Positions 10,098-30,100 are shown, counted from the stretch's first letter. The stretch is 64,000 nt of DNA from an uncultured Eubacteriales bacterium (GCA_905198835.1 CAJKDY010000001.1:150263-214262), one strand, 5' to 3'. The notes: generated from the letters alone by a model not told the origin. Program-made: numbers and translations.

Positions 10098-10180
10098 TCG
10101 CCGGGGCAGGGGAGGGGGCAGGTTTCATTGTCCCTTCAAGACCTTAGCCAGAAAAACTTCGTGGAAATTCGCCCTTTTAG

Positions 10181-10209
10181 TTGACAATAATCGGTAAATG
10201 AAGTATGAT
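10181..10209 (+). promoter_or_regulatory. Sigma-A type promoter upstream of giant gene 2 (probable promoter of the gene 2-3-4 operon).
   Basis: TTGACA (10181-10186), a 17-nt spacer and TATGAT (10204-10209) sit in a locally AT-rich intergenic stretch, with a ~115 nt 5'UTR before the ATG at 10325. Confidence 0.65.
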
Positions 10210-10324
10210 ATACCTGTATGAGTATCACTATGCCCAAATGGACCCAAAAGCAGGTAAATCTAACCATATATTCCAATATCTGGAATATGTTGAGACGAAA
10301 ACTCCCGATGGGAGGGGTTGCTTT

Positions 10325-13300
10325 ATGAAGAAGAAATATGGGCTCAAAGCTGTGCTGGCCAGCGCCATGGTATCCCTGGCGTTGGCGGCGCCTGCCATTG
10401 TGTTCAGCGCGCCCCCCGCGGAGGTGGTGGGCCAGATCCACTTCAGCGGCGCGGAGCTTCGTAGCGTGGAGCTGCCAAGTGGCGAGATGAGCGTCCAGGC
10501 CATCTTTGACGTATCTATCGACCATGTGATCAACGCCACCGGCGCGTCTTTCCATCTGGAGTATAACCCCGACTATCTTCTGCCCTCGGACATGACCACC
10601 AACGAGGTGGTCAAGGCCCCCGACCCCGAGGCCTTCTGTGACGACTTCTTTGCCAGCGACCCCGAGCTCTACTATACGGAAAAAGACGGAAAACGCACCG
10701 TGGTCAACCCCTTTGAACGGGGGGACAAGGACATCAGCCAGTTGGACACCGGCCGGTGCATCATCCATATGAACCTCTGGCTGGACCAAGACAGCGACAA
10801 AGAGGGCAACGGCTTTATCACCGCCACCGGCGGCCCGTCGGGCACCACCCTGGCCGACGGCACCGTGATCGGCGGTAAGGTGGAGCTGCTGGAGGGCGTG
10901 AACTACGGCAGTACCCAGGCCGATGACAACGCCTATGTGGTCAACTGCCGCCAGGACCAGGACGAGGCCGACGACCGAAGCGATGAGGACCAATTCGTCA
11001 CCCTGGGCCAGCTCAGCTTCCAGGTGAACCCGGAGCACCTGCCTGAGATGCTCTACTACTTCAACGCTTTGAAGGCCCAGCGCCACCATCCCGACGACCT
11101 GTCCAGCACCACCCCGTGGGTCACTACCACTTCTATGAACGGCCCTGGGACGGATACCTTCCTGCTGGATATTACTTCTCAGATCGCGGAGACCAAGGAC
11201 CCGTGGATCATTCGGCACTTCCGCTTTGTGGGTAACCGCGGGCGCAAGGAGCTGGTGCCCCTGTCCCCCAAGGACACCCCCGAGGCGGGCGTGACTACGA
11301 TGATCGACAGCTACGCCTTTGACTTTGACCCCAAGCTGATCGTCAACGTAGAGGCCACCGAACCCGAGGTCACGGTCAACGCCTATCAGAACTACACCCA
11401 TGGCGACCCGGACGATCTTCCCTTGACCATGGGCCGTTACTCGCCTACCGTTACCGTTACATACGCCGACGGCTCTAAGGAGAACATTCCCTTCCCCTGG
11501 GGCCAGAAGGACACGGCGGGAGCGTACAAAGACGGCTACGCCGTCAAGCAAGTGACCGGCTACTATACCCAGGCCGATGTGGACGTCTGGACGCCGCCCG
11601 CCACCGACCCCACCGCCACCTGCCCCTTCCGGGTGGGGGACGAGAAGGACTACGCCCCTGTGACCGGCGCCAACTATGACCCCACCCATGGGGTATACCG
11701 CTTCTCCCAGCTCTATAAGTGGACCGACAGCAAGGGCAAGAGCCACACCTTCCCCAAGCCTGTTACCGCCAAGCTCACCGTCACTCCCATCACCGTCATC
11801 GCCGTCACCGCGGAGGACAAAGAGCGCAGTTACAAGGTCACTGACGTGGTGGACCAGGTCCCGGACGCGGCCTCGCTGCGGCTTCCTGAGGAGGCCCGGA
11901 TCCAGACCGACATCGTGCCCAGCGGCGTCTCCCTCACTGTGCCCATCAAGGGCTGGAAGCCCGTACAGCCCCAGTCGGCCAAGGTGGACCCCGACGGCGT
12001 GCCCGATAGCGGGGATGAGTACTACCAGACCGTCAGCACCTGGCCCGGGACGGTGGACAACACCCCGGGCAAGCGGATGAACTCCTTGAAGGCCGACGAC
12101 TATGTGCTCCCCGGTACCTATCCCGCCGGCGATCCCGACGAGGCCAAAAACGGTTATCCCTACTGGCCCGACTCCGCTGACCGCTCCGACACCACCACCC
12201 ATCCCGAGCGGTTCCTGGGCCGGTACAGCTTTGAGACCGCGCAGGGCGACCACGCTACGAAGGAAAACATCCTCAGCGCCGATATCAAGGCTCTCTATCC
12301 CTGGCTCACCATTCCCTTTAAGCCCGGCTCCACCACCGACCGGGTAGAGGACTGGGACGTGGGTCAGGCCTATCGCAGTATATTGGACCAAGCGGACTTT
12401 GACAAAGTGGACCCCCAGCAGTATGAGGTCGTCTGGGTCAGCACCGTCACCGAAAAGACGGGCAACGGAGAATACGCGCCCAACGACCATCATCCCAACG
12501 GCGTGGACCAGCCCACGCTGACGTTGTCGGTGTATAAAAAGACAGGCGCCAGCTTCAGCGACTACGGCTCTTTGGCCGCTGGCTCTGTTTTCCGAGTCTG
12601 GCTGCCCAACGGCCAGGAGCTGGGCACAGGCCAGACATCCGGCGGCGTAACGGTGGAGAACTGGTTCAACGACTCCACCGACACCGATCCCATCACCGGC
12701 CCAAGCCACGTCAACGGCTACTACTATACCACCAGCGACAAGCGCGCCGACGCCAGCGGCGACGGCTTGTTCTTCCGCCTCATTACCAATCCTGACCAGC
12801 CCGAGGTCAACGAGCACGGGACCCAGCGCGAGACCCTGCGGCGGTATATCAATCTGGGCGGCTGGTATCAAGTGGCGGTGTGCGAAGACCCCGGCGCGGG
12901 AAACCACTGGTCCGAGCCGATCCCGGTCTACGTGCCGCCCCGCCGCAACGAGTATATCGAGAGCAAGGTCTATAACTTCCTGGGCCAGAACGCCGGACTC
13001 TATAACTGGCCCGGTGGCGTGGGTGATACGCTCTATCTGCCCCGGGGCGATTACGCCGTGGTAGGACCGGGCGGCGACGTCAACACCGCCGGCGCGGGCT
13101 TGCCCCTCTACGATGTGAAGGACGCCGCCACCGGCAATGTTCTCGTTACCACCGACGGCACCTCCGTTTCCGCCGATGGCGCTATGGTCTTTGCCCCGGG
13201 CAGTATCCACCGTCTGCAGCCCAACGTGGAGCCCCATATCGAGTCCTATGGCGTCAAGACCATCTACGACGGCCAGACCGGCGCTCAGCCCGGCGAGATC

Positions 13301-16300
13301 TATACCGTCCGGGTAGACAAGACCGACACCACCCACACCGATCCTTGGTATGCGACCAGCACCCTGCCCGCGGGCCACACCCATGGGCATGTGGGCGGTA
13401 AGCCCTACTATCAATACGGTCCTACGCCGCTCTACGAGGGCATCGACGCCGATGCTGACGGCGTGCTGGACGGCTTTGCCGTGGCGGGCTTTGGCCGGGT
13501 CTTCCAGCCTGAGACCGACCCGGACAAGTATACCGCCACCCTCCGCCGGGAGGCCGACGAGAAGAGCGCCCAGAGCGTGCGCATCAAGCTGCTGAGCTGG
13601 GAAGTGGACGGCATTACCCGTAACCCGGTCAACAGTACCGACTTTGACAACGACAACGTGGCCCTGGTGACCTACGACACCAAGCAGGAGAACTACACCT
13701 CCCGCCAGGACTTTGTCCTCACCATCAAAAACGTGGGCACCACCGACATCTACGGCCTGGACATCGACACTGTCACCGATGGCTACGACCTGAAAGACGA
13801 CGGCACCGGCACAAGGAGAATGGGCGGACACTTTGAAATGCTGGTGCCTCCGGCTTCCTTCCTGCCTGTGGGCGGCACCACCACCTTCACCCTGACCTAC
13901 GTCTACGATCTGCCCGCCAACGAAGCGCCCAATACGCTTTTGTACCGGGACACGCTTTACATCACCGCCAACGGTCATAATGACCCAGGCAAGGGCCATC
14001 AGCACGACACGGGCCGGATGGACGACCAGTACCTGCTGGACTTTGACGCGGAGTTCGTGGTCTCCAAAGACCCGCTCCACAAGGTCACAGTTATCTACCG
14101 CCCGACCAACGGCAACATGGGCACGGCAAACCTGATCGTAGGCGAACAGGGCACCTCCGCCGCCGACGTTGAGATGATCTACACCCCCACCACCCGGACC
14201 TACGCCAAGGATGGGCTTGTCTATGTGGTGGTCAACAAGGTAGACGAGTATGCGGTCAAGGCCATTACCGCCCAGATCGATGGCGTCACAGTAGACCTTT
14301 TGAACAACAACCGATATGGTTCTGTCATGCTGCCGGGGCTCATTGGCAGCGCCACCATCGACGACGACATGAAGGAGGTTTACGTCTTCCAGATGCCCGA
14401 CCACGACGTCACCGTCTATGTGGACTTCTACGAGCCCTTCCTCTCCAAGCTGCGCCTGGAAGACCTGATCGATTTCTCCTCGCCGCAAAATACCGCGGAA
14501 AACCCCAACATCAACGACCTGAAGACCTCGGAAACCTCTCCCCATCCGCTGGACCCCGAGCACACCTATCGGGTATGGCGCAAGACCTTCACCGACGCCG
14601 AGCGTGACGCCGCCACGGCCTGGAAGAACGCCACCTCCGCGGCGGACGAGGACCTCTACCTGATGACCCAGGGCACCGCCCGGCCCCACAACAGCGACCC
14701 CAAGCTGGAGGGGCAGCAGTTCCTTTCCTCGGAGAATCAATATCTCGTAGTCATCGACGCCGAGGACGATCTCTCCCAGGTGGAGGCTAAGATCCGCCGG
14801 GTGGTCTACCATGAGGACTACCAGGGCACCAACCCGGCCAACTACCCCAACGGCTACAACTACGAGATCGAGCTGGACGTCTCCATGGAGGTCTATCCCT
14901 ACAACGTGGAAAAGCAAACAGGCGGCAGCTACAACTGGGGCACCAGCGCCTATGCCTCTGAGCAGGTTTACGCGCCCAACGGCACCAGCCCCGGCTATGG
15001 GCCCAGGCCCGCCTTTACCGGGACGCCCAGGACCACGGTCACAGGGACCACCGGCTACCCGCCTGTGGACCCCTCCGACCCCACCGCCACCTCGGATTCC
15101 AGCGTCCATACCAGCAGCCAGTTTATCTCTCCGGCCAAGGGGGAGAGCAAATATGTGGTCATCACCCTGTCGGGCATCGACCCGGCGGATCCCGGGGGCG
15201 GGACCCAGTACCGCTACTTCTACCTGGAGATCCACCGCAAGACCGGCGAGCCCAACGTTCAGCTCCACTATGGAAACTCGCCCTACGGCATGATCATGAA
15301 CGAGGACCGCTTTGACACCAAGCTCAAGCAGGACGCGGCCAAGGACGCCTTCCGGGCGGGGTACACCTTTGAGGGCCTGAGCCGGACGGTGGTGCCGGAC
15401 GCGGTGTGGGATCACAGTGATATGCACCATGTGATCTACAACCGGGAAGCCTGGGTCCGCAACCGGGCCGTCTTTGAGCCCGAGAGCCTGACCGGCTTCC
15501 GCGCGGTCCGCCGCGACGACGGCAGTCAGGTGTTCCTGGACGAGGATCCCAGCGACCCTGATAATCCCAATAATCCCCTGAACATCAAGACCAAGCCCAA
15601 GTACGAGCCAAATAAGACGGTCTATGATGAGAAGGAGAACCTGGACCTGAACGAATATGCCTACTTTGCCATCCTGGGCGAGACGCTGCGGGAGCCCGGC
15701 GTCGTCAAGGCTTGGGATTCCTCGGGCCGCCAGGTGCCCCTGGACCGGATCACGGCCAAAGCTATGGATATCGACTGGGCGACAAACAGCAGGGGCCTGA
15801 CCCTGCTGGATACGGCGCAGCAAAAGCAGGTGGCCCGGTTCAAGGGCAATACCACCGACTTCCCCGTTCTGGACCTGGGGGTCCAGGGCCGGACGCTCAC
15901 CTTCCTGGCTGAACATCAACCTGCTGCTCCGGCCACCCCCTTGACCGTCACCAAGGACCACTGGCCCGCCAGCTCCCAGGAGGTGACTACCACGCCCGCC
16001 ACCGGCGGCGAGCCGGTCACTACGACGGAATATACGCTGATCGAGGACATTCGACCTGGCCGATATACCATTGTTTACAGCTTTAAGGACTTTGACGGCA
16101 CCACCGAGCTGCAAGTGGAGCGGCCCTTTGTGATCCTTCGGGGCGTAGGCGATGTGAACACCGACGGCAAGCGCGACAGCGTCAAGACCGCGGGCGCTAC
16201 AGCCTCCGACAGCGATGAGTACCACATTGAAGACCGAGTGGGCGTCGATCCCCTGGGCTACGAGGCGGGCGGGGCAGTGGACGCCAGCAATCTCTACGGC

Positions 16301-16459
16301 AAGGATTACCCCTTCGCTAACATTTTCAAGTTCCGGGTGTGCGACGTAAACAATGACCGCAACATCAACAACATTGACGCCAATCAGCTGGACAAAAACG
16401 CCCGTGCCGGTACCGGCTGGCTTCGGTTCTACCACCCCTGGGAATATGGCCTGAGTTGA
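10325..16459 (+). CDS. Giant secreted protein 2 (2045 aa). It has a Sec signal peptide, an N-terminal cohesin-like module, beta-repeat domains, and a C-terminal divergent dockerin-like pair of Ca-binding loops.
   Basis: RBS GGGAGGGG lies 7 nt before the ATG at 10325. The N-terminus MKKKYGLKAVLASAMVSLALAAPAIVFSA is a signal peptide. The cohesin-like signature is VQAIFDVSIDHVINATGASFHLEYNPDYLLP. One copy of the FxMPxxDVxVxV repeat (VFQMPDHDVTVYVDF) is present. C-terminal loops are GDVNTDGKRDSV and CDVNNDRNINNIDANQL. The ORF-track start at 10205 is rejected because it lies inside the promoter -10 element and lacks an RBS. Confidence 0.85.
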   Translation: MKKKYGLKAVLASAMVSLALAAPAIVFSAPPAEVVGQIHFSGAELRSVELPSGEMSVQAIFDVSIDHVINATGASFHLEYNPDYLLPSDMTTNEVVKAPDPEAFCDDFFASDPELYYTEKDGKRTVVNPFERGDKDISQLDTGRCIIHMNLWLDQDSDKEGNGFITATGGPSGTTLADGTVIGGKVELLEGVNYGSTQADDNAYVVNCRQDQDEADDRSDEDQFVTLGQLSFQVNPEHLPEMLYYFNALKAQRHHPDDLSSTTPWVTTTSMNGPGTDTFLLDITSQIAETKDPWIIRHFRFVGNRGRKELVPLSPKDTPEAGVTTMIDSYAFDFDPKLIVNVEATEPEVTVNAYQNYTHGDPDDLPLTMGRYSPTVTVTYADGSKENIPFPWGQKDTAGAYKDGYAVKQVTGYYTQADVDVWTPPATDPTATCPFRVGDEKDYAPVTGANYDPTHGVYRFSQLYKWTDSKGKSHTFPKPVTAKLTVTPITVIAVTAEDKERSYKVTDVVDQVPDAASLRLPEEARIQTDIVPSGVSLTVPIKGWKPVQPQSAKVDPDGVPDSGDEYYQTVSTWPGTVDNTPGKRMNSLKADDYVLPGTYPAGDPDEAKNGYPYWPDSADRSDTTTHPERFLGRYSFETAQGDHATKENILSADIKALYPWLTIPFKPGSTTDRVEDWDVGQAYRSILDQADFDKVDPQQYEVVWVSTVTEKTGNGEYAPNDHHPNGVDQPTLTLSVYKKTGASFSDYGSLAAGSVFRVWLPNGQELGTGQTSGGVTVENWFNDSTDTDPITGPSHVNGYYYTTSDKRADASGDGLFFRLITNPDQPEVNEHGTQRETLRRYINLGGWYQVAVCEDPGAGNHWSEPIPVYVPPRRNEYIESKVYNFLGQNAGLYNWPGGVGDTLYLPRGDYAVVGPGGDVNTAGAGLPLYDVKDAATGNVLVTTDGTSVSADGAMVFAPGSIHRLQPNVEPHIESYGVKTIYDGQTGAQPGEIYTVRVDKTDTTHTDPWYATSTLPAGHTHGHVGGKPYYQYGPTPLYEGIDADADGVLDGFAVAGFGRVFQPETDPDKYTATLRREADEKSAQSVRIKLLSWEVDGITRNPVNSTDFDNDNVALVTYDTKQENYTSRQDFVLTIKNVGTTDIYGLDIDTVTDGYDLKDDGTGTRRMGGHFEMLVPPASFLPVGGTTTFTLTYVYDLPANEAPNTLLYRDTLYITANGHNDPGKGHQHDTGRMDDQYLLDFDAEFVVSKDPLHKVTVIYRPTNGNMGTANLIVGEQGTSAADVEMIYTPTTRTYAKDGLVYVVVNKVDEYAVKAITAQIDGVTVDLLNNNRYGSVMLPGLIGSATIDDDMKEVYVFQMPDHDVTVYVDFYEPFLSKLRLEDLIDFSSPQNTAENPNINDLKTSETSPHPLDPEHTYRVWRKTFTDAERDAATAWKNATSAADEDLYLMTQGTARPHNSDPKLEGQQFLSSENQYLVVIDAEDDLSQVEAKIRRVVYHEDYQGTNPANYPNGYNYEIELDVSMEVYPYNVEKQTGGSYNWGTSAYASEQVYAPNGTSPGYGPRPAFTGTPRTTVTGTTGYPPVDPSDPTATSDSSVHTSSQFISPAKGESKYVVITLSGIDPADPGGGTQYRYFYLEIHRKTGEPNVQLHYGNSPYGMIMNEDRFDTKLKQDAAKDAFRAGYTFEGLSRTVVPDAVWDHSDMHHVIYNREAWVRNRAVFEPESLTGFRAVRRDDGSQVFLDEDPSDPDNPNNPLNIKTKPKYEPNKTVYDEKENLDLNEYAYFAILGETLREPGVVKAWDSSGRQVPLDRITAKAMDIDWATNSRGLTLLDTAQQKQVARFKGNTTDFPVLDLGVQGRTLTFLAEHQPAAPATPLTVTKDHWPASSQEVTTTPATGGEPVTTTEYTLIEDIRPGRYTIVYSFKDFDGTTELQVERPFVILRGVGDVNTDGKRDSVKTAGATASDSDEYHIEDRVGVDPLGYEAGGAVDASNLYGKDYPFANIFKFRVCDVNNDRNINNIDANQLDKNARAGTGWLRFYHPWEYGLS
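10412..10930 (+). other. Cohesin-like module of giant protein 2 (approximate bounds).
   Basis: The motif ...FDVSIDHVINATGASFHLEYNPDYLLP resembles the cohesin strand signature (GIANCDFVFRYDPNVLEI of CipA cohesins). It sits just after the signal peptide. Confidence 0.45.
16148..16400 (+). other. Dockerin-like region of giant protein 2: two DxNxDG-type Ca-binding loops about 60 aa apart.
   Basis: GDVNTDGKRDSVKT and CDVNNDRNINNIDANQL fit the dockerin/EF-hand loop consensus (D1, N3, D5, D/N9, D12, then a hydrophobic helix). They are at the extreme C-terminus. Confidence 0.5.
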
Positions 16460-16551
16460 CGAACCCCCGCTCTTACCCCAGTTCCCGGCTCCAATGCCCT
16501 GACCCCGCATAGCGGGGCCGGGGCCTTGGGACACCAAGGAGGCAGAGGCTT

Positions 16552-19500
16552 ATGGATAACAAGTGGACAAAACGGCTGGTAAGCCTGACAGTGGCGCTGG
16601 AGATGCTCTGCTCTCCCCTCGCTACGGCCAGGGCGGAGGAGGTCGTCACCGAGCGGCCGGAGATCCCCGCTGTGGTCTCTGAAGAGCGCAGGGAGACCCC
16701 CGTTGTCAGCTCCGGCGGTACTGCCGCCGACAGTTCTGCCGACCTTCTGGCCCTGCCCGTGGACGAAAACAGCCTGGGCGTGGACCTGTCCTTTGGGATC
16801 CCGCTGACCACCGGCGTGGGCGGCAGGCCCTATCCCACCCGTTACGACGGTTATTTTACCTATGAGAGCGCCTCCAACCGGGACTGGGGCTACCGGATCT
16901 TTGCCAACGGTCGAGAGAAATATTTTGTCAAGTCCGGCGATAACTTCTACACCGCGCTGACGGACCCGGGCCGCCTGCCCGATCTGGAGCTGGATGGCTT
17001 TTATGTGCTAGGCGAGCCCACGGCGTCTACCTGGCTGCTGGATGAAGACGCCCGGGCCAGTATGGTGCGGGGCTGGACCTACGACGAGGACTGGGGGGCT
17101 TCCGCCGTCCGGCTGCAGGAGACCAATGACGATGTGACCTTTACCGGCGAAGACGATGTGGACTATGCGGAGAGCAACTACCTCTCTTTGGGGTATCTGA
17201 CCGGGGAGGAGATGGATCGGCTCTTTGGCGACAATATTGCCCGCAGCGACGGCACGATGGGCTTTGTGCCCATCGTGGCCCGCTGGCAAAGCAGTTCCAA
17301 CAGCGATCTCACCAGCCTCAGCGCTACCACCTATACGCAGGACACCGGCGCGGCCAACACAGTGGAGCGGTTCTTTGTAGAGGACCCCACCGGCCTTGCC
17401 AGCCCCGCGGACGTGGAGCTCTCCGCCATCGACGCGGACTATTTCTCCAATCACGGCAAGGAATTCTGGCTCCGAGTGCCCGAGGATCAGGAATCGCTGA
17501 CGCTGCAATTCGCGGCCTACGAGCCTTATTACGACTATAACGTGACCCACAACGGAGCAGGGGAGAGCCCTGTCTCCGTTTCCGTGCTGTTCAACGGCGC
17601 GAGCGTCACCGTGGACGGTGAGGACATTCAGGTCCAACGGGGCTGGAGCTGGGACGCATCGGGAGAACCCACCGACGCCGTGGTCCCCCAGCCCACCGAG
17701 ACCGGCGGCTGGCTGACTCCCCGGAATACCACGGGGAACCCGGCCCGGTCCCACTGGAGCGTGACCAACATTCCTCTGGCCAAGGTGAACCAGGCCGAGG
17801 ATATGAACGACGCCAGCACCACCGTCACCATTACCGTGCTGGCCCCCGACGGCCAGAGCAGCAGCCGCTATACCATTCATGTAGAGCGGCTCATGACCCC
17901 CACCTATGAGCTGGGCCTTGGCAACACGCCCCTGGCCATGATCGAAAAGGACCAGCATGGTAACTGGGGTAACAACCCCTCTGACATTCGCGCCAACAAG
18001 GATGCGGCCAAGGCGGATTTTAAGGCGTATTATCGCTTGGGTAACAGCGGCATCGTGGGCCCGGGGGACTATACCTATTATAAGAGCCAGTTTGACCCTT
18101 CGGCCTGGAGAGGCCTTTCCTGGGAGGGGAGCGCGGCGGGGTACAATATCGACCTGGACGAGACCGCCGTGGTGGCCTATCAGGACACCGCTTTCGCCGA
18201 TCCCGGGGTCTCCTTTGTGGGCAGCAACGGCAAGACCGTGGAGTTTGGCGCCAACGCCCCGGCGGAATATCAGGACTGCGTTACGCGCACCATCGAGCTG
18301 CGCAGGGCGGACGTCCTCACCGCCGACTGCTACGGCGCCTCTGGGGAGGCGTGCTGGTATACCAGCGAGGGCGGCAAGGGCGTCTTGAAGGGCGTCCAGA
18401 CCGCCCAGATCCTCCAAAATGCCGACGGCAGCGACGGGGTGGATCTGCGGGGGATGCGGATCCTCCCCGGCGTATACACCATGACCTATACCTTTACCGA
18501 TCCCTTGGACCCCACTGCTCCTGTGGTGGCCAAGCGGCCCTTGGTGGTGCTGCCCATTCCCGGCGATGTGGACATGGACGGCGCGGTCACCGTGGCCGAC
18601 GCGCTGACCCTGGGCACGCACCAAGACGGTTGGGAGAGCTCCTCCGCGCAAGACGTGCAGCTCCTGCGCTACCGGGTGCTGCTGGGTGACGATACCCAGG
18701 GCAAGATCCTGAACGGCTTCCAGCCCGTGCTGGCCGATCTGGGCCGGAGCGATTATTTCTATCCGCCGATGCCCACCCCCAGCGATGCTTCAGGCACCTA
18801 CCAACGCAAGACCTGGGACCAGGTGACCATGGACGGCTCCGCTCAGCTGGAGCTTCGCTTCCTGGGTGTGGAGCAGGGCATCTTGATGGGGGAGGACAGC
18901 CATACCTACCCCGCCACCGATGGCGTTTTGGACGCCGACCACGGCAAGATCGGCCCCTGGCTGGCCGATGAAAACGCGCAGGTCACTGTCCGGGAAAAGG
19001 ATGCGATCACCGGGAAGGATCAATACGGCGTCGCCGGTCAAAACGACGTGTTTTGGGTGGGCGTCTACCTCACCGCCGGAGAACTGGCGGGCAGTACAGT
19101 GGAGGATCTGGCTCTCACCCTGACCTACGACAGCGACTTTGTGGAGCCCATGGTGGTATACAAGGCCAACCAATTCCCTGACGCCAGCCAGCGCGACTAC
19201 TGGTATCGCGCCCTTTATTACTATAACTTTGGCGAGGGCTCCAAGCTGGACCAGAGCCATACCATGACCCTCTTCAGCGGCTACAACCGTACCGATTACG
19301 ACTATGAGAGCGGCTCCGCGCCCAGCCGGGCCTATGCCACCCACTACTCCAAGGTCATCGGGGAGCTTGAGCAGCTCCAGAGCACCGCCACGCTGCGGGA
19401 GATGGTGGTCAGCGTCCAGGGCAGCGACGCTGTGGGCAGCCGCCGGGCCACGCTGCCCAGTGGTGAGATCTGTGTGCTGGCTGTGCCCTTCCGGCTCCTT

Positions 19501-22500
19501 AAGCACCCCACCGGCGGCCGGCTGAACGATGGTCAGGCCCGGCTGGTGGAGTTGGGCGCGGGAATGCGGGACTTCACCCTGGTGACCAAGGCCGCCTCCG
19601 GCGCCAGCCGGGGCGTCAGCGCCTCGTCGGTCTTTGCCACGCTTCTCTCCGCCGCCGACGGTCGGGCCATGGAGGCGGGGGATGTGACCTACGCCTTCTC
19701 CGCCCAGGATGCCATTTACGGCGGCGCCACCCAGAACCTGCGGGAGCGGGTGTGCTATCAGAAAAACGCGGGCATGATCCCCATTGGCGAGAATAAGACC
19801 AGCGCCATCGAGCTGCGTTCGGCCAAGTACGCCGAGGATTACGGCAGAACGATCATCAACGGCGGCGGGACGATGACGGCGGGCAGCCTGCCTGCCGGTC
19901 TGAACTATCAAAACCAGGCCAGCGGCGAGGGTATCATCACTGGCACGCCCACCGAGGCGGGGGAGTTCCACTTCACTATTACCCACAACGGCGTGGAGAG
20001 CTACTATACCCTGGTGGTGGAAAAGCGGACCCTGCGCTTCAAGCCCAACGGCTGCGGCGCCTACTACGGGCAAGAGCAGTACCGCGGGACCTCCAACCCA
20101 CAATTTACGTTTACATACGAAGTGGATGACCTGGCCCAGCGGGACCGGCCCGCGGGCGTGGAGCTGAAGGGCAACGGCGCGGAGCTGGCGAGCATTTTGG
20201 GAGAGGACGGCAGCTATACCCCGCCCACCTTTACCGCCAAGCTCAGCCGCGACACCGCCGACGCGGAAAACGCGGTCAAAGCGAATACCCCGGTGGGGGC
20301 CTATCCCATTATTCTGGATGACGGCACCGCGGTAGATGACAAGTATGAGCTGGTGCTGGAGGAGGCCTCGTCCATCGGTTCGGTGCTCAATATCGACCGG
20401 CGGCCGGTATGGATCGACCACATTACCGCCACCGTGGACCAGACTGGGGCCCAGATCTATAGCGACGGCAGCCGGCTGGACTGCCGGATCACCCTGACTG
20501 AGACCGATCCCGACCAGCCTATGATCCACTTGGCTCTGCGTGAGGAGTCGGTACTGGGCGGGATATACGGTGGCCGGCCCCTGTCGGGGGACGCCCGGGT
20601 GCCGGGGGACACGCTGACGCTTACTTTCAGCGGCGAATTCCAGCGCAACGATGACGATATTGCCCATTATCCCGACAACAATGATATGTTCTACATGAGG
20701 GCTGAGGCAGAGGACCGCGCCATCAGCCCCGTGGCCGTTGACGCCCGCAAATTCAACGAGGAAAACCGCAATTACAGCCTGCAGTCTGTTTCGGGCGCCG
20801 TCGTTTTGCACAGCGACGATAACGAGGTTCAGGGCAAGGTGCTGCGCCGGGAGATCACCGAGCTGGAGTTCTCCGACTATCCCTACGCCCTGAGCGGCGA
20901 GGGCTCTGTGACCTACGGCGAGAACATCAGCCTTTCCGATCTGCGTATCCGGGTCTTCCGGGACGATCAGCAACTCGGCTCCAATCCCTACGACTTTACC
21001 TATGACTACGACGGCTCCATGGCCCAGACCCTGGATATCCACTATAACTGGGTCACCAAGGAGGAGATGGAAGCGGGTCTGAAAAGCCCCAACACCGTCC
21101 TGGGCTCGGGCTGGGACCCCACTCTGCCCAAGGACCAGCAGGACTCTAACCCGTACCGGGAGACCAACAGCTCGCTCAGCGTGGGCCTGGACGGCTACTA
21201 CCTGTGCGCCGCTGCCCGCAAGTACGCCGTAGACGACCCCAATGCCCCCCAGGGGGACGACGCCTACATCAAGGTGTATAGCGACCATCCCATCCGTGTG
21301 CTGCCCCGGGAGGTCACCTTGACAGTCACCGATATGAACCGCTTCTACGGCGAGGAGGGCGCCCAGCCCCGGTATACCTACTCGGTCAACCAGCTGGCCA
21401 GCGTCGATCTGCAAAAGCTCCATGAGCGCTACGATACCCTCACCGGCGCCGCCTCTGAGCTGGAGTGGGTGCTGGGCGAGGACTACACCAAGCCGGCCAT
21501 CCAGTTTATGCGCGTGCCCCGGCTGCCCGCGTCCTCCATGGATGCGGACCTGGTCACTGTGGATACCGACGCCACCAATACCTACTACTACCAGGTCATC
21601 TCCGGCGCCAAGTCCAGCAACTATATCTTCCGATACAACCGTGTGGACGGCGACCGACGGCCCAGCGCCAACTTCGGCACCGCCTATCTCAGCATTATGA
21701 AGCGCCCCATCGTGGTCGCCGATATCGGCAGTATGTATACCACCGATCCAGACGGTCATGCCGTGCCTACGACTTTGGCTGACGGCAAGGATACCTTTGC
21801 CGTAGTGTACGCCGACTCCAAGCGGCTTTTGCTCAGCGACCAGGTGGATAACGGCGCCCGCACCGCCTTTACCGCCTCCGCCGATCCCGCCTCCGCCAAC
21901 CGGGTCACCTTTATCGCCCCCGACTATGACGAGGCTACCCAGACCGTGTCCTATTATAACGGCGGCGCCAGCGACAATGTGGCCCGGCAGACCGGTATGG
22001 CCTATACCGGAGATCCCGTCCGCGCCGACGATCTGGCCAACCTGCGGGTCACCTACAAGGTCCAGTTCCTGCCCGACGCGGGCCATTACAGCTGGAACTC
22101 CTTCTCGGACAACTATTACAGCGTAGAGGACCTGACCGCCGCAGGCGGCCAGGCCCAGCGGCCTGTGGAGCTGCGGGAGCTGGAGCTGACCAGCGAAGAC
22201 GGCACGGCCAACAACTATATGCTGGTCTACAAGGACTCCTTCCAGGCCGTCCGGCGCGCTCCGGCGAACTCTGAGCTGGTCAACGCCCCCAACCCCACCG
22301 GCACCGCCGATATCGGCGACGCCGCCTTCCAGCAATACGGTACCGGCCTTGTGATCCTGCGGCCCATCAAGACCATGGACATCAAGTCCGTGGGCTGTAT
22401 GCAGTATACCTACGGCGAATTCTTCGCGCCCAATAACCCCGGCGTCAGCGGCAGCCAGCTCACCCTCTCGGTGAACTACGACACCCGCTATGATAACTAT

Positions 22501-25500: not shown

Positions 25501-27072
25501 TATAACCCCTCCGGAGACCTCACCGCCGACGGCGACGGCGACGGTCAGCCCGACGCATCTGCCTGGGAGCTTTACCAAGCTCGCCAGGCTGTAGCCGCGT
25601 ATCGGCAAAATGGGGACGAGACCCAGGACCAGAGCCTGCTGGCTGAGGCCCAGGAGAAGTCCGGCGCCGTCTTGAGCGCCTGCCAGGGCATGAAGGAGCT
25701 GGCCCAAAAGCAGGCGGCGGACCGGGTGGCGGAGGACGCCGCCAGGGTAGAGGAGGGCTTCTCCGACGACAAGCCCCAGCAGCCCGGCCCCATCGCCGCG
25801 GTAAAGAGCTATCAGCAGCGCTTTGATCTGCTTTCGGCCAGCTGGGAGCGCCAGGAGGACCAGACGTATCTGGTAAAGCTCCTGGAGGACGTTCGCTTTA
25901 CCGACACACTGGTCTATACCGATCAAAAGCTGATGGACAGCGTAGTCTATAACGATCCTACCCGCTATTACGGCTACTTCTGGGACCCGGATCTGTCCGC
26001 CTCTATTCGGTTTAACGATCCGGAAAATCCCATTGATTTTGACACCGTTATGGAAGCGGAGATCCGCCAGCGGCAGAGCAATGGCGAAACGGTGGCGACC
26101 ATATTCACCTACGACCCTGCCGCGACCAACCACACCGCTGAGCTCTATATCCAAAACAGCAGCGGCGGTGGGCGCACCGTGCGCTCCATTCGCATCGTCC
26201 CCTCCATTCTCTTTGTCCGTGTGGGCGACGCGCCGGTGCAGCTGAGCGTGGTCACAGATCCGAAAAGGCCCATCAACCGTCGCTACACCTGGACCTCCTC
26301 CGACCCCAGTGTGGTCTCTGTGGACGAAAAGGGCCTTGTCACCATCCGGGGCGAGGGAACGGCGGTCATCACCGTGACCACCACCAACCGCCGTACGGAC
26401 TCCATCACGGTGGTGGTCTCGCCGCTGTTGCCCATTACCCCGGGAAACGACCCCATTTTCAACTTCAATTACACCGGGGCCTGGGCCGAGTTGGACGAGG
26501 ACTACGCCTTCCGGCCCCATGAGACCATGACCCGGGGCCAGGTGGTCCAGTTGCTGGACCTGTTTTTGAACCCTGAGCATGACCTCTCCGGCGGCAAGGA
26601 GATCGCGTATGTGGACGTGACGGGCCGGGAGAAATACTACGGCGCGCTGTGCCGGCTCACAAAGGTAGGCGCTGTGGTGGGCGTTCCCGGCACCGCCTTT
26701 GCCGGCGAGCGGCTGGCCACCCGGGCGGAGTTTGTCACCATCCTGGCCCGGATGCTGGAGTTGAACGTCTCTGACACCGTGGGTATGGCCCACGCCTTTG
26801 CCGACTCCGGCGAGGACGCCACCTGGGCCTACGCCTATATCGATGCCATGGCCAAGGCCGGTATTATCCGGGGCACCGGCGGCGACTGCTTTGCTCCCAA
26901 CCGACCCATTACCCGGGAGGAGGCCGCGGCCATCATGGCCCGGCTGGTGGTGAGCCGAATGGACGCCGCCGACCAGACCAAGCTCCGCACTCCCAGCGAC
27001 ATGACTCCGGAAAACTGGTCCTATCCCTCCGTGCTGCGGGCTGTGAACTCCGTGGTGGCCCCCGGCTTCTAA
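16552..27072 (+). CDS. Giant S-layer-homology (SLH) anchored surface protein 3 (3506 aa). It has a signal peptide, a cohesin-like module, He_PIG-type putative Ig domain, YG-containing MBG-like repeats, a Big_2 domain and three C-terminal SLH repeats.
   Basis: RBS AAGGAGG precedes the ATG at 16552. The signal peptide is MDNKWTKRLVSLTVALEMLCSPLATARA. The He_PIG motif is SLPAGLNYQNQASGEGIITGTPTEAGEFHFTIT. Big_2 is VGDAPVQLSVVTDPKRPINRRYTWTSSDPSVVSVDEKGLVTIRGEGTAVITVTT. The SLH repeats are FNYTGAW...RGQVVQLL, YVDVTGREKYYGAL...ATRAEFVTILARML and FADSGEDATWAYAYIDAM...ITREEAAAIMARLV. Confidence 0.9.
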   Translation: MDNKWTKRLVSLTVALEMLCSPLATARAEEVVTERPEIPAVVSEERRETPVVSSGGTAADSSADLLALPVDENSLGVDLSFGIPLTTGVGGRPYPTRYDGYFTYESASNRDWGYRIFANGREKYFVKSGDNFYTALTDPGRLPDLELDGFYVLGEPTASTWLLDEDARASMVRGWTYDEDWGASAVRLQETNDDVTFTGEDDVDYAESNYLSLGYLTGEEMDRLFGDNIARSDGTMGFVPIVARWQSSSNSDLTSLSATTYTQDTGAANTVERFFVEDPTGLASPADVELSAIDADYFSNHGKEFWLRVPEDQESLTLQFAAYEPYYDYNVTHNGAGESPVSVSVLFNGASVTVDGEDIQVQRGWSWDASGEPTDAVVPQPTETGGWLTPRNTTGNPARSHWSVTNIPLAKVNQAEDMNDASTTVTITVLAPDGQSSSRYTIHVERLMTPTYELGLGNTPLAMIEKDQHGNWGNNPSDIRANKDAAKADFKAYYRLGNSGIVGPGDYTYYKSQFDPSAWRGLSWEGSAAGYNIDLDETAVVAYQDTAFADPGVSFVGSNGKTVEFGANAPAEYQDCVTRTIELRRADVLTADCYGASGEACWYTSEGGKGVLKGVQTAQILQNADGSDGVDLRGMRILPGVYTMTYTFTDPLDPTAPVVAKRPLVVLPIPGDVDMDGAVTVADALTLGTHQDGWESSSAQDVQLLRYRVLLGDDTQGKILNGFQPVLADLGRSDYFYPPMPTPSDASGTYQRKTWDQVTMDGSAQLELRFLGVEQGILMGEDSHTYPATDGVLDADHGKIGPWLADENAQVTVREKDAITGKDQYGVAGQNDVFWVGVYLTAGELAGSTVEDLALTLTYDSDFVEPMVVYKANQFPDASQRDYWYRALYYYNFGEGSKLDQSHTMTLFSGYNRTDYDYESGSAPSRAYATHYSKVIGELEQLQSTATLREMVVSVQGSDAVGSRRATLPSGEICVLAVPFRLLKHPTGGRLNDGQARLVELGAGMRDFTLVTKAASGASRGVSASSVFATLLSAADGRAMEAGDVTYAFSAQDAIYGGATQNLRERVCYQKNAGMIPIGENKTSAIELRSAKYAEDYGRTIINGGGTMTAGSLPAGLNYQNQASGEGIITGTPTEAGEFHFTITHNGVESYYTLVVEKRTLRFKPNGCGAYYGQEQYRGTSNPQFTFTYEVDDLAQRDRPAGVELKGNGAELASILGEDGSYTPPTFTAKLSRDTADAENAVKANTPVGAYPIILDDGTAVDDKYELVLEEASSIGSVLNIDRRPVWIDHITATVDQTGAQIYSDGSRLDCRITLTETDPDQPMIHLALREESVLGGIYGGRPLSGDARVPGDTLTLTFSGEFQRNDDDIAHYPDNNDMFYMRAEAEDRAISPVAVDARKFNEENRNYSLQSVSGAVVLHSDDNEVQGKVLRREITELEFSDYPYALSGEGSVTYGENISLSDLRIRVFRDDQQLGSNPYDFTYDYDGSMAQTLDIHYNWVTKEEMEAGLKSPNTVLGSGWDPTLPKDQQDSNPYRETNSSLSVGLDGYYLCAAARKYAVDDPNAPQGDDAYIKVYSDHPIRVLPREVTLTVTDMNRFYGEEGAQPRYTYSVNQLASVDLQKLHERYDTLTGAASELEWVLGEDYTKPAIQFMRVPRLPASSMDADLVTVDTDATNTYYYQVISGAKSSNYIFRYNRVDGDRRPSANFGTAYLSIMKRPIVVADIGSMYTTDPDGHAVPTTLADGKDTFAVVYADSKRLLLSDQVDNGARTAFTASADPASANRVTFIAPDYDEATQTVSYYNGGASDNVARQTGMAYTGDPVRADDLANLRVTYKVQFLPDAGHYSWNSFSDNYYSVEDLTAAGGQAQRPVELRELELTSEDGTANNYMLVYKDSFQAVRRAPANSELVNAPNPTGTADIGDAAFQQYGTGLVILRPIKTMDIKSVGCMQYTYGEFFAPNNPGVSGSQLTLSVNYDTRYDNYTEPYVGNVSSETVAYTYEADTSSFEKRGFIIHYIDVDTQDKNDVAETEQILMGGDALYPAVHNDKHLFVSGKRGENDPLVYSSVTDDALVIARTPLTLTARNIHRFYGESNSDGYVIPLNQESEDDAVSGALTFTYVFPASQLARWDREMLSQLLGVTIREVDTLTQGQLEQALALAASGSDEQKEWCANFGYQKPTITTTATQTSPINTSHGNWGEYVITNTAKPFANYLVTGVGATLYVYPRPVRVTGIASSEDDPVYTIYNQTAGKIFNTAFDQDRITVERSNGDLTATWTQDLADGVHRGVGLKLSGPALVGEDKLRYKAVIDYTNADTTLADGVTEAYMEVVATITEFAASEGEAQRNYTLSVSRNGAYTNDHATGAIKLRTIGYIIIRQLPEDEYDYGETLSLDGLRVTVNYMLLSDEGLAEYDPVNVDYIDANQFQSYGLFVNYWDPDYDVVPAEGRWKTIPNAYRKAGNGDHLTIAPTHDTQQFLGNDRSRPLERPFAANGMGLIISAFQEGENQTAAQPKVLAAQSTPIEGTGLNSFEVTDANQTPFTFTVHPRRLQYTLSATDKTYNGDEKTAGTLRLTNVFDQRDVQVRITAASTAAVHMPVYEDVTDVVYVPVGAAYETLGDNYTRYAGSAYRVTGGGISFTTGAYTDGRGSLLDPNPTVEWSGGYQWGKGLLEFTFPNANVHYVDDTFLSGNLPGVGTEELARYWRASQDLNDVDTRWDSFPDVSQMPVEVRNMTFMGPDAANYTWGPSTEAQTYETQVTLDTDPATLGVDQANLPYATVQKANRQSIQDLLSAKGFVLPTLQVDERTNVIRVTYGEELSKIDDRTGAAVSEGVLNAEGKDDFRDELHFEYALAYEADGLLRQWAGREGEAGYQDTLFFGGEAVAPEIDPAYIPALERLDKIENASERTIYKGQPYRWAEEDTGLSDRGYRVDQGFCIDPSAYPGYATYGAQVRDAYWCYALYATDRTALPRDTVFYPLVRLAETHNYNPSGDLTADGDGDGQPDASAWELYQARQAVAAYRQNGDETQDQSLLAEAQEKSGAVLSACQGMKELAQKQAADRVAEDAARVEEGFSDDKPQQPGPIAAVKSYQQRFDLLSASWERQEDQTYLVKLLEDVRFTDTLVYTDQKLMDSVVYNDPTRYYGYFWDPDLSASIRFNDPENPIDFDTVMEAEIRQRQSNGETVATIFTYDPAATNHTAELYIQNSSGGGRTVRSIRIVPSILFVRVGDAPVQLSVVTDPKRPINRRYTWTSSDPSVVSVDEKGLVTIRGEGTAVITVTTTNRRTDSITVVVSPLLPITPGNDPIFNFNYTGAWAELDEDYAFRPHETMTRGQVVQLLDLFLNPEHDLSGGKEIAYVDVTGREKYYGALCRLTKVGAVVGVPGTAFAGERLATRAEFVTILARMLELNVSDTVGMAHAFADSGEDATWAYAYIDAMAKAGIIRGTGGDCFAPNRPITREEAAAIMARLVVSRMDAADQTKLRTPSDMTPENWSYPSVLRAVNSVVAPGF
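18562..18615 (+). other. Single dockerin/EF-hand-like Ca-binding loop in giant protein 3.
   Basis: GDVDMDGAVTVADALTLG fits DxDxDGxxxxxD followed by a hydrophobic helix. Confidence 0.4.
18900..19430 (+). other. Cohesin-like module of giant protein 3 (approximate bounds).
   Basis: DVFWVGVYLTAGELAGSTVEDLALTLTYDSDFVEPMVVY shares the VFWVG[VI]...YD..EP signature with giant protein 4 and resembles the cohesin core strands. Confidence 0.45.
19861..20020 (+). other. He_PIG / putative Ig (dystroglycan-type cadherin-like) domain motif in giant protein 3.
   Basis: The pattern LPAGLNY...GxIxGTPTxxGxFxFTIT is characteristic of the 'putative Ig' domain family. Confidence 0.55.
26221..26420 (+). other. 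Big_2 (bacterial Ig-like group 2) domain of giant protein 3.
   Basis: VQLSVVTDP...YTWTSSDPSVVSVDEKGLVTIRGEGTAVITVTT is a classic Big_2 signature. Confidence 0.7.
26455..26960 (+). other. Three tandem SLH (S-layer homology) repeats forming the cell-wall anchor at the C-terminus of giant protein 3.
   Basis: Three ~55-aa repeats are present, with the conserved SLH pattern (aromatic-x-D..hydrophobic...TRAE/TREE..hydrophobic helix). Confidence 0.85.
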
Positions 27073-27139
27073 GACCTCGGCATCCATCGACAAAACGACC
27101 TGTACGTTCCCCGTCGGGACAAAAAAGGAAGTGTCTGCC

Positions 27140-30100
27140 ATGAAACAAAAATGGAATCGACTGTTGGCGTCGCTGCTGTGCGCGCTGATGCTCTGCTCTG
27201 ACCTGTCAGGGCTGATGCCGCGCGCCGCGGCAGCCCCGGCGGCGAGTACGCCGACTACGGTGACTAACACTGGCGTGCAGGATGAATTCCGCGATGAGGC
27301 AAACGGCAGGCCCAACCTTTTTGTCAGCTTCCTGGGGGACAACAATAACTATGTCTACAGCGCCACCAACGCCGCCTTGACCCGGCTCAACGACGCCAGC
27401 CTGAACACCATCTCCGTCCCCGCGCCCTACGATCAGTCGGGCTACGACAACCCCACCGGACCGGGCAATGACAGCTCAGGCGCCTGGTTCCAGTACAAAA
27501 ACTATCCCGACTGCGCCCCGGCCAACCTGAACAAGACCGTGTTCTGGGTGGGCATTGGCGTGGACCGCACCCAACTGCTGGAGTTGGTGAAGGACGGCAA
27601 GGGCCTTTCTAGCCTGGAGGCCGGCTTCTACTACGACAATACTATCATCGAGCCCTACATCGACCCCACTAAGTTGCCGGTTGGGGTCACCATGGCCACC
27701 GCCACCGACGAGCAAAAGCAGGAGGCCTATCGCCAGACCATTGCCCAGGCCAATATCGCCAACGGCAAATACCCAGCCAACACCCAGTGGTCCTCGGATT
27801 ATACCATCCTCCGCGCCCTGTCCGGCGTGGAGCCGCCGGAAACCGACCCGGTGACCCGGGAGGAGCTGGAACAGGCCACTATGGATGATATCATGAACAA
27901 CACCCTCTATACCTCCGCCGGCCAGAGCCAGTGGAAGATGACCTACGTCTCTTTGGAGCTGTCGGACATTGCCAGTGAGACGGCGAACCGTCGCCTGGCC
28001 GGGGCCTATCAGGGCGTGGACAAGCTGCCCCAGGGCGTGGACGATGAGGGCAACCCGGTGCCTATCGTTCCCGATTCCGCCCAGGGCGACCAGTATATCG
28101 TAGACGGAGACCCTACCTCCGGCTACGACTATAACTATCTGCTCCTGATCCCCTTCCGGCTGAAGAACTACGGCTCCACTGACTGGACGCCCCTGCGTCT
28201 GGTCCGGGACGCCACGCACTTCTCCATCGGCGGCAGCACCTGGGGCGTGGATGACTATGGCGCCTGGGAGCGTACCACCACAAGAAACGGCGCCGTCACC
28301 GGCTCCGCCGGGGACGCCAATACCCTGAGCGTAGAGTCGCACCCGGACCGGGACCTGAAACTGCTGACCCGCTTTGCCGGAGACCTGAACCTCTTCTCCC
28401 CGGGCAGAACGGCGGAATATGAATACGACGCGCTGTTGCGCATCATCGGAGACGGCGGCAGTTTGAACCACGCCAAGCTCACCGTAAAGGGCGACCCGGC
28501 GGTGTGGCCGGTGTGGGCCGACACCAACGGCGATATCATCGGCGGGCTCCAAAGCGGCCAGGGAATGCACCTGGACGTTCACACCCAGGATAACTATGTC
28601 GCCACCGTCACTGTCACCTATTACCAGGATGACGGCGCGGGCGGAGAGGAATTGGTCTACCACCAATATACGCAGACGTTGAGCGGAGCCCATGACAACT
28701 CCTATGAGTTTGTCATGCCCGCTTTTACGCGTGTAGGCACCCGGCGTGTCACCGTCACCGTGGCCTTTACCTACCAAGCGGGCGACAACGCCCTGGTCTA
28801 CCTGACCGAGATCCCCCAGCCCGGCGACGCCGACCACGCCGTGGGCAACGAGACTACCATCCGTACCAGCCTCACCGCCGCCTACGCCCCCACCGGCAAT
28901 ACCGAGACCATCAACAGCTATAGTCCCACCTCCGCCCACCCCAACTACTCCCATCCCGGCCTGACCCACCCCAACACCCCAGTGGCCAACGCCAAGAAGG
29001 ACCAGTATGTGGAGATCCAGGTGGAGACCCATGCCGACTATGCCGCCGTGGTGCAGATCTACGACTTTAAGGCCCAGTGCTTTGTCACCGGCGGGCTGAA
29101 TATCAACGCCACCGGCGTCTCCGGCGTGACCCCCGATCAGACGGAGATCGACAACCCGGCCCATCTGGCCGATCCCACCGACCCCTCCATCCCGGCCAAG
29201 ATCAAAAGCGGCAGGATCACCCTGCCCCAGGGCGGCACCATCGGCCTTCGTATGGGCAGCCAGGACCTGGACGTGATCATCACCTATGAAAAGGGCCAGC
29301 GGCGTCAGGCCACCCTGGAGGTCTATAACACCAACGCCGACGCGGTGAACTTCAATCTGAACACCGCCCAGCTGGTCTATGACCGCTATGACGCGCTGAA
29401 CCAGCCCAGCAAGGCGTACAGCAGCGTGACCTACCATGACTACGACAAGGACGCGCTTGGCACGGTGACTACCGACGACCACCGGGCCATCAAGGGCACA
29501 AACAAGCTGCCCTGGATCTCGGCAAGCCAAGCAAGCCTCTCAGGCAGCCTGGGCGGCGACACTGGCCGCACCGGTAAGAGCTGGGAGCCCACGGCCCTGC
29601 CCACCGCCCAGCAGGAGGTCCTGGGCGGCATGACCGTCATGGCGCTGCTGGCCAGCGCCACCCAGAAATCGGACTTCCAGGCCACCATCAACGGTATGGA
29701 CCTGGCCTGCGCCGTGGTGGACGATGGCTCCGCCTCCGGGCTGACCGGGCTTCGTAAGAACGCCCAAGGTGAGCTATATGGCGACCCCGACGTCTCCGCC
29801 GCTTTGGATGCGGATATCGATAAGCCCACCATCGTGGACGCGCTTTGGGAGCTTCGCCAGGCCATCGACGCCGACACGTCTACCGGCGGCTTGAAGGACA
29901 CCTATCTCAAGACCGTCACCAAGGCTGCCGACGGCTCTGTGGCCTACACCTATTACGACCTGACCCCCGCTCAGGTCCAGGCCTATTTGCTGGAGATCTT
30001 TGAGGCGGCGCAGATCAAGGCGGAAAACGACCTGGCCTACCGCATCGCCTATCGGCGGTATCTGACCATTCTGAACGACTATAACGCTGTGAAGGATATC

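Follow-up and report, generated by a model that had tools for sequence, protein, structure and literature searches.

How might several giant secreted proteins encoded by adjacent genes be held together at the cell surface? The question is raised by a 64,000-nucleotide (nt) stretch of DNA from an uncultured Eubacteriales bacterium (GCA_905198835.1 CAJKDY010000001.1:150263-214262; hereafter the window), which carries four consecutive giant open reading frames (ORFs) on the plus strand, here called P1 to P4. The textbook way to build multi-protein machines outside the cell is the cohesin-dockerin pair, and such pairs are usually counted by sequence profiles. An initial annotation, made from the sequence alone, had proposed a cohesin-like module in three of the four ORFs (P2, P3 and P4) as the best candidate for the receptor of such a system. 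Our analysis of these three suggests that P3 and P4 each hold one copy of a previously undescribed, strongly embellished module with a predicted cohesin fold. The best and most economical reading of the locus, to which we give a probability of roughly 0.6, is that its giant cell-surface proteins form a cohesin-dockerin assembly of a non-cellulosomal kind.

The motif strings quoted for P2, P3 and P4 were all present at the sites given, with one segment start, nt 18900, moved to 18901 to be in frame. In P3 (nt 16552-27072, plus strand; 3,506 amino acids, aa) the motif reads VFWVGVYL...LTLTYDSDFVEP (VFWVG...YDSDFVEP; aa 833-866, nt 19048-19149, plus strand). In P4 (nt 27131-42679, plus strand; 5,179 aa from the called start at nt 27140) it reads VFWVGIGV...GFYYDNTIIEP (aa 137-175, nt 27539-27655, plus strand). 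Both parts of the proposed likeness, the identical VFWVG core and the YD-x-x-aliphatic-EP strand after it (YDSDFVEP in P3, YDNTIIEP in P4), are thus found in both proteins. VFWVG is one of 34 pentapeptides common to P3 and P4, a number within the range given by shuffled P3 sequences (mean 21.6, maximum 35), and the core alone is therefore no evidence. P3 and P4 each contain the compound pattern [FWY]W[VIL]G-x15-45-[FYW][DN]xx-aliphatic-aliphatic-[ED]P exactly once, and it is absent from P1 and P2. A second common motif, (V/I)PFRL, sits 140-200 residues downstream of FWVG in both proteins: as YLLLIPFRLKNYG in P4 (nt 28136..28174, plus strand), where it is kept in orthologues, and as CVLAVPFRLLKHP in P3 (nt 19471..19509, plus strand), which aligns with the PF(R/V)LK motif of the P4 family. 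Comparison of the three originally proposed segments with one another by BLASTP was not significant (E about 1).

Profile comparison was used to examine the relationship between the P3 and P4 modules. The first profile-profile comparison, with shallow alignments, aligned only a 40-residue motif (P=0.004). Orthologues were obtained from one Logan contig and four metagenome-assembled genomes (MAGs) of Oscillospiraceae, and a P3 profile of five sequences matched an alignment of 46 P4-type modules (A4) at 91.8% (E=7e-7, 241 columns). When three divergent P3-type orthologues were later added, the match rose to 98.3% (E=1.4e-14, 230 columns). In addition, many members of the P4 family were matched at the homologous position by a hidden Markov model (HMM) of the P3 module (best E=2e-8). 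From these results it follows that the two modules are homologous along their whole length, a relationship that we regard as established at the level of sequence profiles. The same profile matches led us to reject chance as the source of the motif likeness. The P3 module is internal (aa 763-1065, nt 18838..19746, plus strand) and the P4 module directly follows the signal peptide (ORF aa 59-425, nt 27305..28405, plus strand). The size of about 170 aa initially assigned to them was therefore too small; the P3 module has about 300 aa, the P4 module about 370-390 aa and the smallest family members about 250-280 aa. Searches of the P3 and P4 segments against the Protein Data Bank (PDB) with phmmer gave no matches, and a word-indexed homologue search with the P3 segment returned nothing, though P3 itself sits in the collection.

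An exhaustive HMMER search with the P4 N-terminus, clustered at 50% identity, identified at least 62 cluster representatives that carry a P4-type module, in every case at the N-terminus after the signal peptide. More than half of these representatives (36/62) exceed 3,000 aa, ranging from about 3,000 to 6,000 aa, and the remainder are shorter entries or fragments. The hosts are human and mouse gut Oscillospiraceae. Orthologues at 40-84% identity retain FWVG, the Y-D/N-x-x-aliphatic-x-P strand and (V/I)PFRL, and the P3 module is likewise kept in its orthologues at 25-77% identity. Fourteen positions are invariant among the 46 sequences of A4 (module numbering: F94, G114, E119, Y124, P131, W176, Y180, W224, Y292, P297, F298, W335, K366 and G373), and none of these 46 aligned modules has a significant Pfam match. 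Five of the invariant positions (F94, G114, E119, Y124 and P131) belong to the VFWVG...YDNTIIEP motif and three (Y292, P297 and F298) to the second, PFRL-type motif. One metagenome protein from JGI (P0002, at L002 379-1086) resembles the P4 module as far as the PFRLK motif, beyond which its sequence is unrelated; it is probably the product of a chimeric or frameshifted short contig.

The fold of the module was predicted with AlphaFold2 for P4 aa 45-440, using A4 as the alignment. The resulting model is of good confidence (predicted local distance difference test score, pLDDT, 84.7; predicted template modelling score 0.87), with low confidence limited to the N-terminal tail and two loops. It is a nine-stranded flattened beta-sandwich with cohesin topology. 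Strands assigned by DSSP include 92-100, 115-125, 129-131 and 291-300, and the hallmark motifs fall on them: the VFWVG...YDNTIIEP motif runs through the predicted strands beta2 and beta3 into the beginning of beta4, and YLLLIPFRLKNYG lies on strand 291-300. When the model was compared with 48,164 PDB chains, the best 18 were all cohesins, with a gap before the next fold class. These cohesins span types I, II and III as well as those of Clostridium perfringens and Archaeoglobus, and 116-158 residues were aligned, which is nearly the whole of each target. The cohesin strand that the initial annotation had quoted for comparison, GIANCDFVYSYDPNVLE, was confirmed as the sequence of PDB 1aoh (E=1e-89), and the hallmark strand aligns with 1AOH in the expected register. 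The segments were not assigned to any unrelated beta-sandwich family. We conclude that the P4 module has a predicted cohesin fold, and the P3 module receives the same assignment because it is homologous to that of P4. As modelled, a cohesin core of about 140 residues would have been kept and about 160-250 residues of insertions added to it, with family hallmarks on beta2 (FWVG), beta3-4 (F/L-x-Y-D/N-x-x-aliphatic-x-P) and beta6 (PFRL).

Dockerin-like calcium loops were found in all four giants, in the same locus as the cohesin-type modules. P4 has a dockerin-type module at its C-terminus (aa 4931-5061, nt 41921..42313, plus strand), with 65 residues between the starts of its two calcium loops. 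Across the P4 family the C-termini have the form GDV(D/N)GDG...K..D followed by ...YNP.S.AY..DL(D/N)GDG...S..DL, that is, two calcium-loop segments. At the level of the family, these duplicated F-hand segments match the dockerin profile: all 27 aligned P4-family C-termini (27/27) matched Pfam Dockerin_1 (PF00404; best E=1.2e-11), and a profile built from them retrieved PDB dockerins at E from 8e-8 to 1e-3.

In P3, a dockerin-like segment (aa 664-727, nt 18541..18732, plus strand) lies just upstream of the cohesin-like module. Its first calcium loop, GDVDMDGAVTVADA, is intact, and the second is degenerate in the lineage of the window, having decayed to LGDDTQGKILNGF. Divergent P3-type orthologues retain both loops (GDVDMDGAVT...RVCDVNxDG) and are recognised by the dockerin HMM (E about 1e-4). 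In the P3-type proteins of the window and of loci L008, L010 and L011, the dockerin-like segment stands about 45-60 residues upstream of the protein's own cohesin-like module. Such a plug beside a socket in one chain is unusual and could serve in self-capping or in the formation of a lattice.

The remaining loops are in P1 and P2. Only the end of P1 falls within the window (nt 6-10031, plus strand; the 5' portion is cut off by the window edge). The visible part comprises the last 3,341 aa, with five Cadherin-like stretches by Pfam, and the gene table of identical contigs (L013/L014 1-9707) lists the complete product with 42,508 residues, which corresponds to a gene of some 127 kb. Isolated dockerin-like calcium loops occur in its C-terminal region (aa 2911-2933 and 3293-3314, nt 8736..9947, plus strand; Pfam Dockerin_1 E=0.0043). 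P2 has C-terminal dockerin-like loops (GDVNTDG...CDVNNDRNINNID; nt 16127..16402, plus strand; Pfam Dockerin_1 E=0.088). Both P1 (9882-10028) and P2 (16343-16456) end in a single calcium loop and a short aromatic PW tail, ...YHRYQAILEPWSTI and ...GWLRFYHPWEYGLS respectively, directly before the stop codon; this combination may be a C-terminal signature common to the two. A stretch of P2 (aa 1949-1988, 16049-16168) shows 46% identity over 41 aa to P3 (aa 637-677, 18460-18582; BLASTP E=5e-4), and it comprises the last strand of an immunoglobulin (Ig)-like domain and the first calcium loop (PG.YT..Y.F.D...RP.V.L...GDV..DG). It is the sole BLASTP likeness at E<0.01 among the four giants.

P3 also has a C-terminal SLH domain, a cell-wall anchor (nt 26797..26928, plus strand; Pfam E=3.2e-16). 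Sec-type signal peptides open P2, P3 and P4, and P3 thus combines a signal peptide, a cohesin-like module and an SLH anchor in the manner of an SLH-anchored scaffoldin. The arrangement of the two genes is conserved. In each of the nine loci with upstream sequence (9/9) the P4-type gene was directly preceded by a P3-type gene, at 25-84% protein identity, and SLH is on record or was detected for the P3-type genes of L001, L009, L010 and L011, where the relevant part is present. Loci L010, L011 and L012 have two further large genes downstream of the P3-P4 pair, of about 1,700-1,900 aa and 4,000-6,600 aa, the larger of which has SLH and Flg_new on record in L010; one such further large gene is visible downstream of the P4-type gene in L008. 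No homologues of P1 and P2 were found in the related loci, these more distant genomes included, and the accessory giants of the cluster are therefore lineage-specific.

These features suggest how the proteins might fit together. The module would most likely be the socket that receives dockerin-type calcium-loop modules encoded in its own gene cluster, the candidate plugs being the C-termini of P4, P2 and P1 and the dockerin-like segment inside P3. P3 would be the anchoring scaffold, fixed to the wall by its SLH domain. Because P4-type giants would carry the socket N-terminally and the plug C-terminally, they could be tethered to P3 and also recruit a partner or polymerise head to tail, and P1 and P2 would be lineage-specific additions with plug-like ends. 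Cohesin-dockerin contacts would in this way hold giant surface fibres together in a non-enzymatic assembly. We infer the receptor function from its context, namely the dockerin-type C-termini, the SLH anchor and the kept gene adjacency; the binding of dockerins by the module and the pairing of particular partners are likewise proposed on these grounds, as is any choice between intramolecular contacts with the adjacent dockerin-like segment of P3, head-to-tail contacts and hierarchical ones. A bolder version, which we consider rather unlikely, is a self-assembling chain in which SLH-anchored P3 holds the C-terminal dockerin of P4 and the P4 socket holds the next dockerin (of P2, P1 or another P4), so that the 42,508-residue P1 is tethered to the wall or micrometre-scale surface fibres are built. 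If true, such a chain would put the cohesin-dockerin principle to a new purpose in human-gut Oscillospiraceae, namely the structural polymerisation of non-enzymatic giants.

The position of the module bears on the main rival to a cohesin-dockerin assembly. In this rival the fold is of the cohesin type but the module is an adhesive head rather than a dockerin receptor; the distal tip would bind a host, mucus, dietary or bacterial ligand, and the C-terminal dockerin alone would attach the protein, for example to a canonical cohesin elsewhere in the genome. The module lies at the extreme N-terminus in all 62 clusters, which is the usual place of the ligand-binding domains of fibrillar adhesins; the giants contain Big_2, cadherin-like and Rib domains of adhesin type; and the large family-specific insertions could make a new binding site. 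However, P3 has the same module internally, beside a dockerin-like segment and far from any tip, and the most conserved residues are on the core cohesin strands, not the insertions. Moreover, adjacent genes in nine loci strictly combine a fold of the socket type with a plug-type module and an SLH anchor, as in cohesin-dockerin systems. We hold the adhesive head to be a rather unlikely explanation.

Several observations weigh against a cohesin-dockerin assembly and have to be set beside the predicted fold. Pfam Cohesin (PF00963) was absent from P2, P3, P4 and 46 family members at E<=5-10, and a search of PDB sequences with the family profile found no cohesin, the only match being a spurious one to a ribosomal protein (E=1.9). 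The hallmark cohesin strand proposed initially stood up in its register, but hhalign of the module against the verified cohesin 1AOH gave only P=0.16-0.23. Foldseek of the P4 model against the PDB gave a best E of 0.23 and placed the cohesin 2zf9 no higher than rank 21; the presumed cause is that local alignment is interrupted by some 250 inserted residues. At 2-3 times cohesin size, the module lies outside the compact 140-180-residue range, and its insertions could cover the 8-3-6-5 binding face. On the dockerin side, P4's own dockerin scores 14 bits (E=0.06), short of the cut-off of 22.9. The loop starts are 50-71 residues apart in most family members and 29 in P0050, the canonical value being about 33, so that the family departs from the canonical dockerin, a module of about 60-70 aa whose loops are spaced by about 30-35 residues. 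Finally, the only Pfam domains in the visible part of P1 and in P2, P3 and P4 were Big_2, Cadherin-like, Rib and SLH; no carbohydrate-active enzyme, other enzyme or cargo domain was found by Pfam, and the four giants are thus without the dockerin-bearing carbohydrate-active enzyme cargo of a cellulosome or amylosome.

The failure of Foldseek, Pfam and the PDB profile search could also be taken to mean that the module is an unrelated jelly-roll or Ig-like domain that has converged on a generic beta-sandwich, with a coincidental YD..EP strand, the more so as the cohesin-like model is a prediction. Such convergence seems very unlikely, given that the 18 best-ranking of 48,164 chains are all cohesins and separated from the next fold class, that each is aligned over nearly its full length, that the hallmark strand is in register with 1AOH, and that dockerins occur in the same proteins. 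Because all sequence-based methods miss cohesins, we refer to it as a cohesin-fold module outside Pfam Cohesin. The cohesin interpretation of the initial annotation is thereby upheld for the predicted fold of P4 and, through homology, for P3, but has no counterpart in a sequence-level cohesin match and does not extend with confidence to P2.

In P2 the longest ORF spans nt 10205-16459 (plus strand), and the called start, M41 at nt 10325, gives 2,044 aa; this start (MKKKYGLKAV...) is that of the product on record and yields a normal signal peptide. The string proposed as analogous, FHLEYNPDYLLP, is present (aa 116, nt 10550-10585, plus strand) within a candidate cohesin-like region (aa 72-343, nt 10418..11233, plus strand). 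Membership of this region in the P3/P4 family was not supported: hhalign reproduced the proposed register at a non-significant P=0.06-0.07, the P3-module HMM had no match in P2 when the four giants were scanned, and that of the P4 module matched only at an unrelated place (aa 1119-1168; E=0.24). The claim that the module is the only one common to three of the four giants thus holds for two of them, P2 not being confirmed, and BLASTP found almost nothing else in common. The region may instead represent a separate, more canonical cohesin-like lineage outside the P3/P4 family, a possibility that we put at somewhat less than even. Its only phmmer matches in the PDB at E<=10 were two cohesins of Pseudobacteroides cellulosolvens, 2y3n_A (E=0.38) and 1tyj_A (E=0.63), aligned exactly on the P2 motif (SVELPSGEMSVQAIFDVSIDHVINATGASFHLEYNPDYLLP), and the region follows the signal peptide of a secreted protein, as does the P4 module. 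Against this, neither E=0.38 nor P=0.06 is significant and the region has no Pfam match. Two protein searches and a metagenome scan found no homologues, so that a profile could not be built, and the AlphaFold2 single-sequence model of P2 aa 69-360 was too poor to use (pLDDT 32).

The first 26 kb of the window from nt 325 are identical to two human-gut metagenome contigs (L013/L014), and the closest genomes are uncultured Oscillospiraceae MAGs. No name is on record for the window's own P2, P3 and P4 clusters. A link of P1 to the RCC1-type giant genes of Oscillospiraceae (bioRxiv 10.1101/2023.11.21.568195) was considered and rejected because the domains differ. Long antisense ORFs mirror the giant genes on the minus strand, at 10136-16537 (2,133 aa), 18790-27345 (2,851 aa) and 35570-39406 (1,278 aa); the most likely origin of these ORFs is as a side effect of the 62% G+C content and codon bias. 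It is the plus-strand products, not the antisense ORFs, that have orthologues and are on record. Downstream of the giants are the housekeeping genes ilvE, pyrB, comEC, holA, rnmV and hemW. An ORF of 1,080 aa at nt 50421-53663 matches a NEAT/leucine-rich-repeat surface protein model at E=2.5e-4, far below the cut-off, and by this match may encode another surface protein.

The socket family, with at least 62 clusters, is invisible to cohesin sequence profiles, and in the window its giants of 3,000-6,000 residues stand beside a protein of 42,508 residues. It is also a caution that cohesin-type systems are undercounted by Pfam-based genome surveys. If the module binds the dockerins of its cluster, this would explain how abundant uncultured gut bacteria mount giant wall structures, would add a much larger, embellished version to the known range of the cohesin fold, and would put small expressible domains on hand for probing the architecture.

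Among known systems, the cohesins of cellulosomal scaffoldins of types I-III (PDB 3l8q, 4uyp, 5k39, 1ohz and 2zf9) have a strand-3 motif of the form aromatic-x-aromatic-D/N-x-x-aliphatic and a strand-6 motif ending in F-x-aliphatic-K, both of which recur here, and they too belong to sets of secreted proteins with dockerin-type modules and an SLH-anchored partner. The present module differs in its length of 300-390 rather than 140-180 residues, its helical and loop insertions and its lack of a Pfam Cohesin match. It occurs in single copy per protein and not in tandem arrays, its carriers are giants of 3,000-6,000 aa without detectable enzymes, and its binding is proposed from context. A closer parallel is offered by the group 4 and 5 cohesins of human Ruminococcus, which are detectable by structure alone and carry embellishments near the binding face (bioRxiv 10.64898/2026.02.05.704116). 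Like the module described here, they come from Oscillospiraceae-related gut bacteria, were found only by AlphaFold2 and structural comparison, and have an embellished jelly roll. They are, however, compact, with a hairpin of about 20 residues, and are part of scaffoldins that recruit dockerin-bearing glycoside hydrolases (bioRxiv 10.64898/2026.02.05.704116), whereas the insertions here are ten times larger and occur in non-enzymatic giant surface proteins.

In its overall plan P3 resembles the SLH scaffoldins of Clostridium thermocellum (SdbA, OlpB and Orf2p), having a cohesin-type module and a C-terminal SLH anchor and a gene beside that of a presumed dockerin-bearing partner. It differs from them in having 3,506 aa, a single cohesin-like module that is divergent and has a dockerin-like segment in front of it, and one detectable SLH repeat. 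P4-type giants, with a putative socket at the N-terminus and a plug at the C-terminus, recall the adaptor scaffoldins ScaA of Ruminococcus flavefaciens and ScaB of Acetivibrio cellulolyticus, but their two modules are about 4,500 residues apart, separated by unannotated beta-rich sequence, and the calcium loops are spaced by 50-70 rather than about 33 residues. Non-cellulosomal cohesins and dockerins are already known. Those of the C. perfringens toxin complexes (2vo8, 2w1n and 2o4e) and the cohesin of Archaeoglobus fulgidus (2xdh) are compact, canonical and recognised by Pfam, unlike the module of P3 and P4. What is new in the present system is the degree of embellishment, the combination of an N-terminal socket with a C-terminal split dockerin about 4,500 residues away, the tandem arrangement of dockerin-like and cohesin-like segments in an SLH-anchored giant, and the absence of enzymes.

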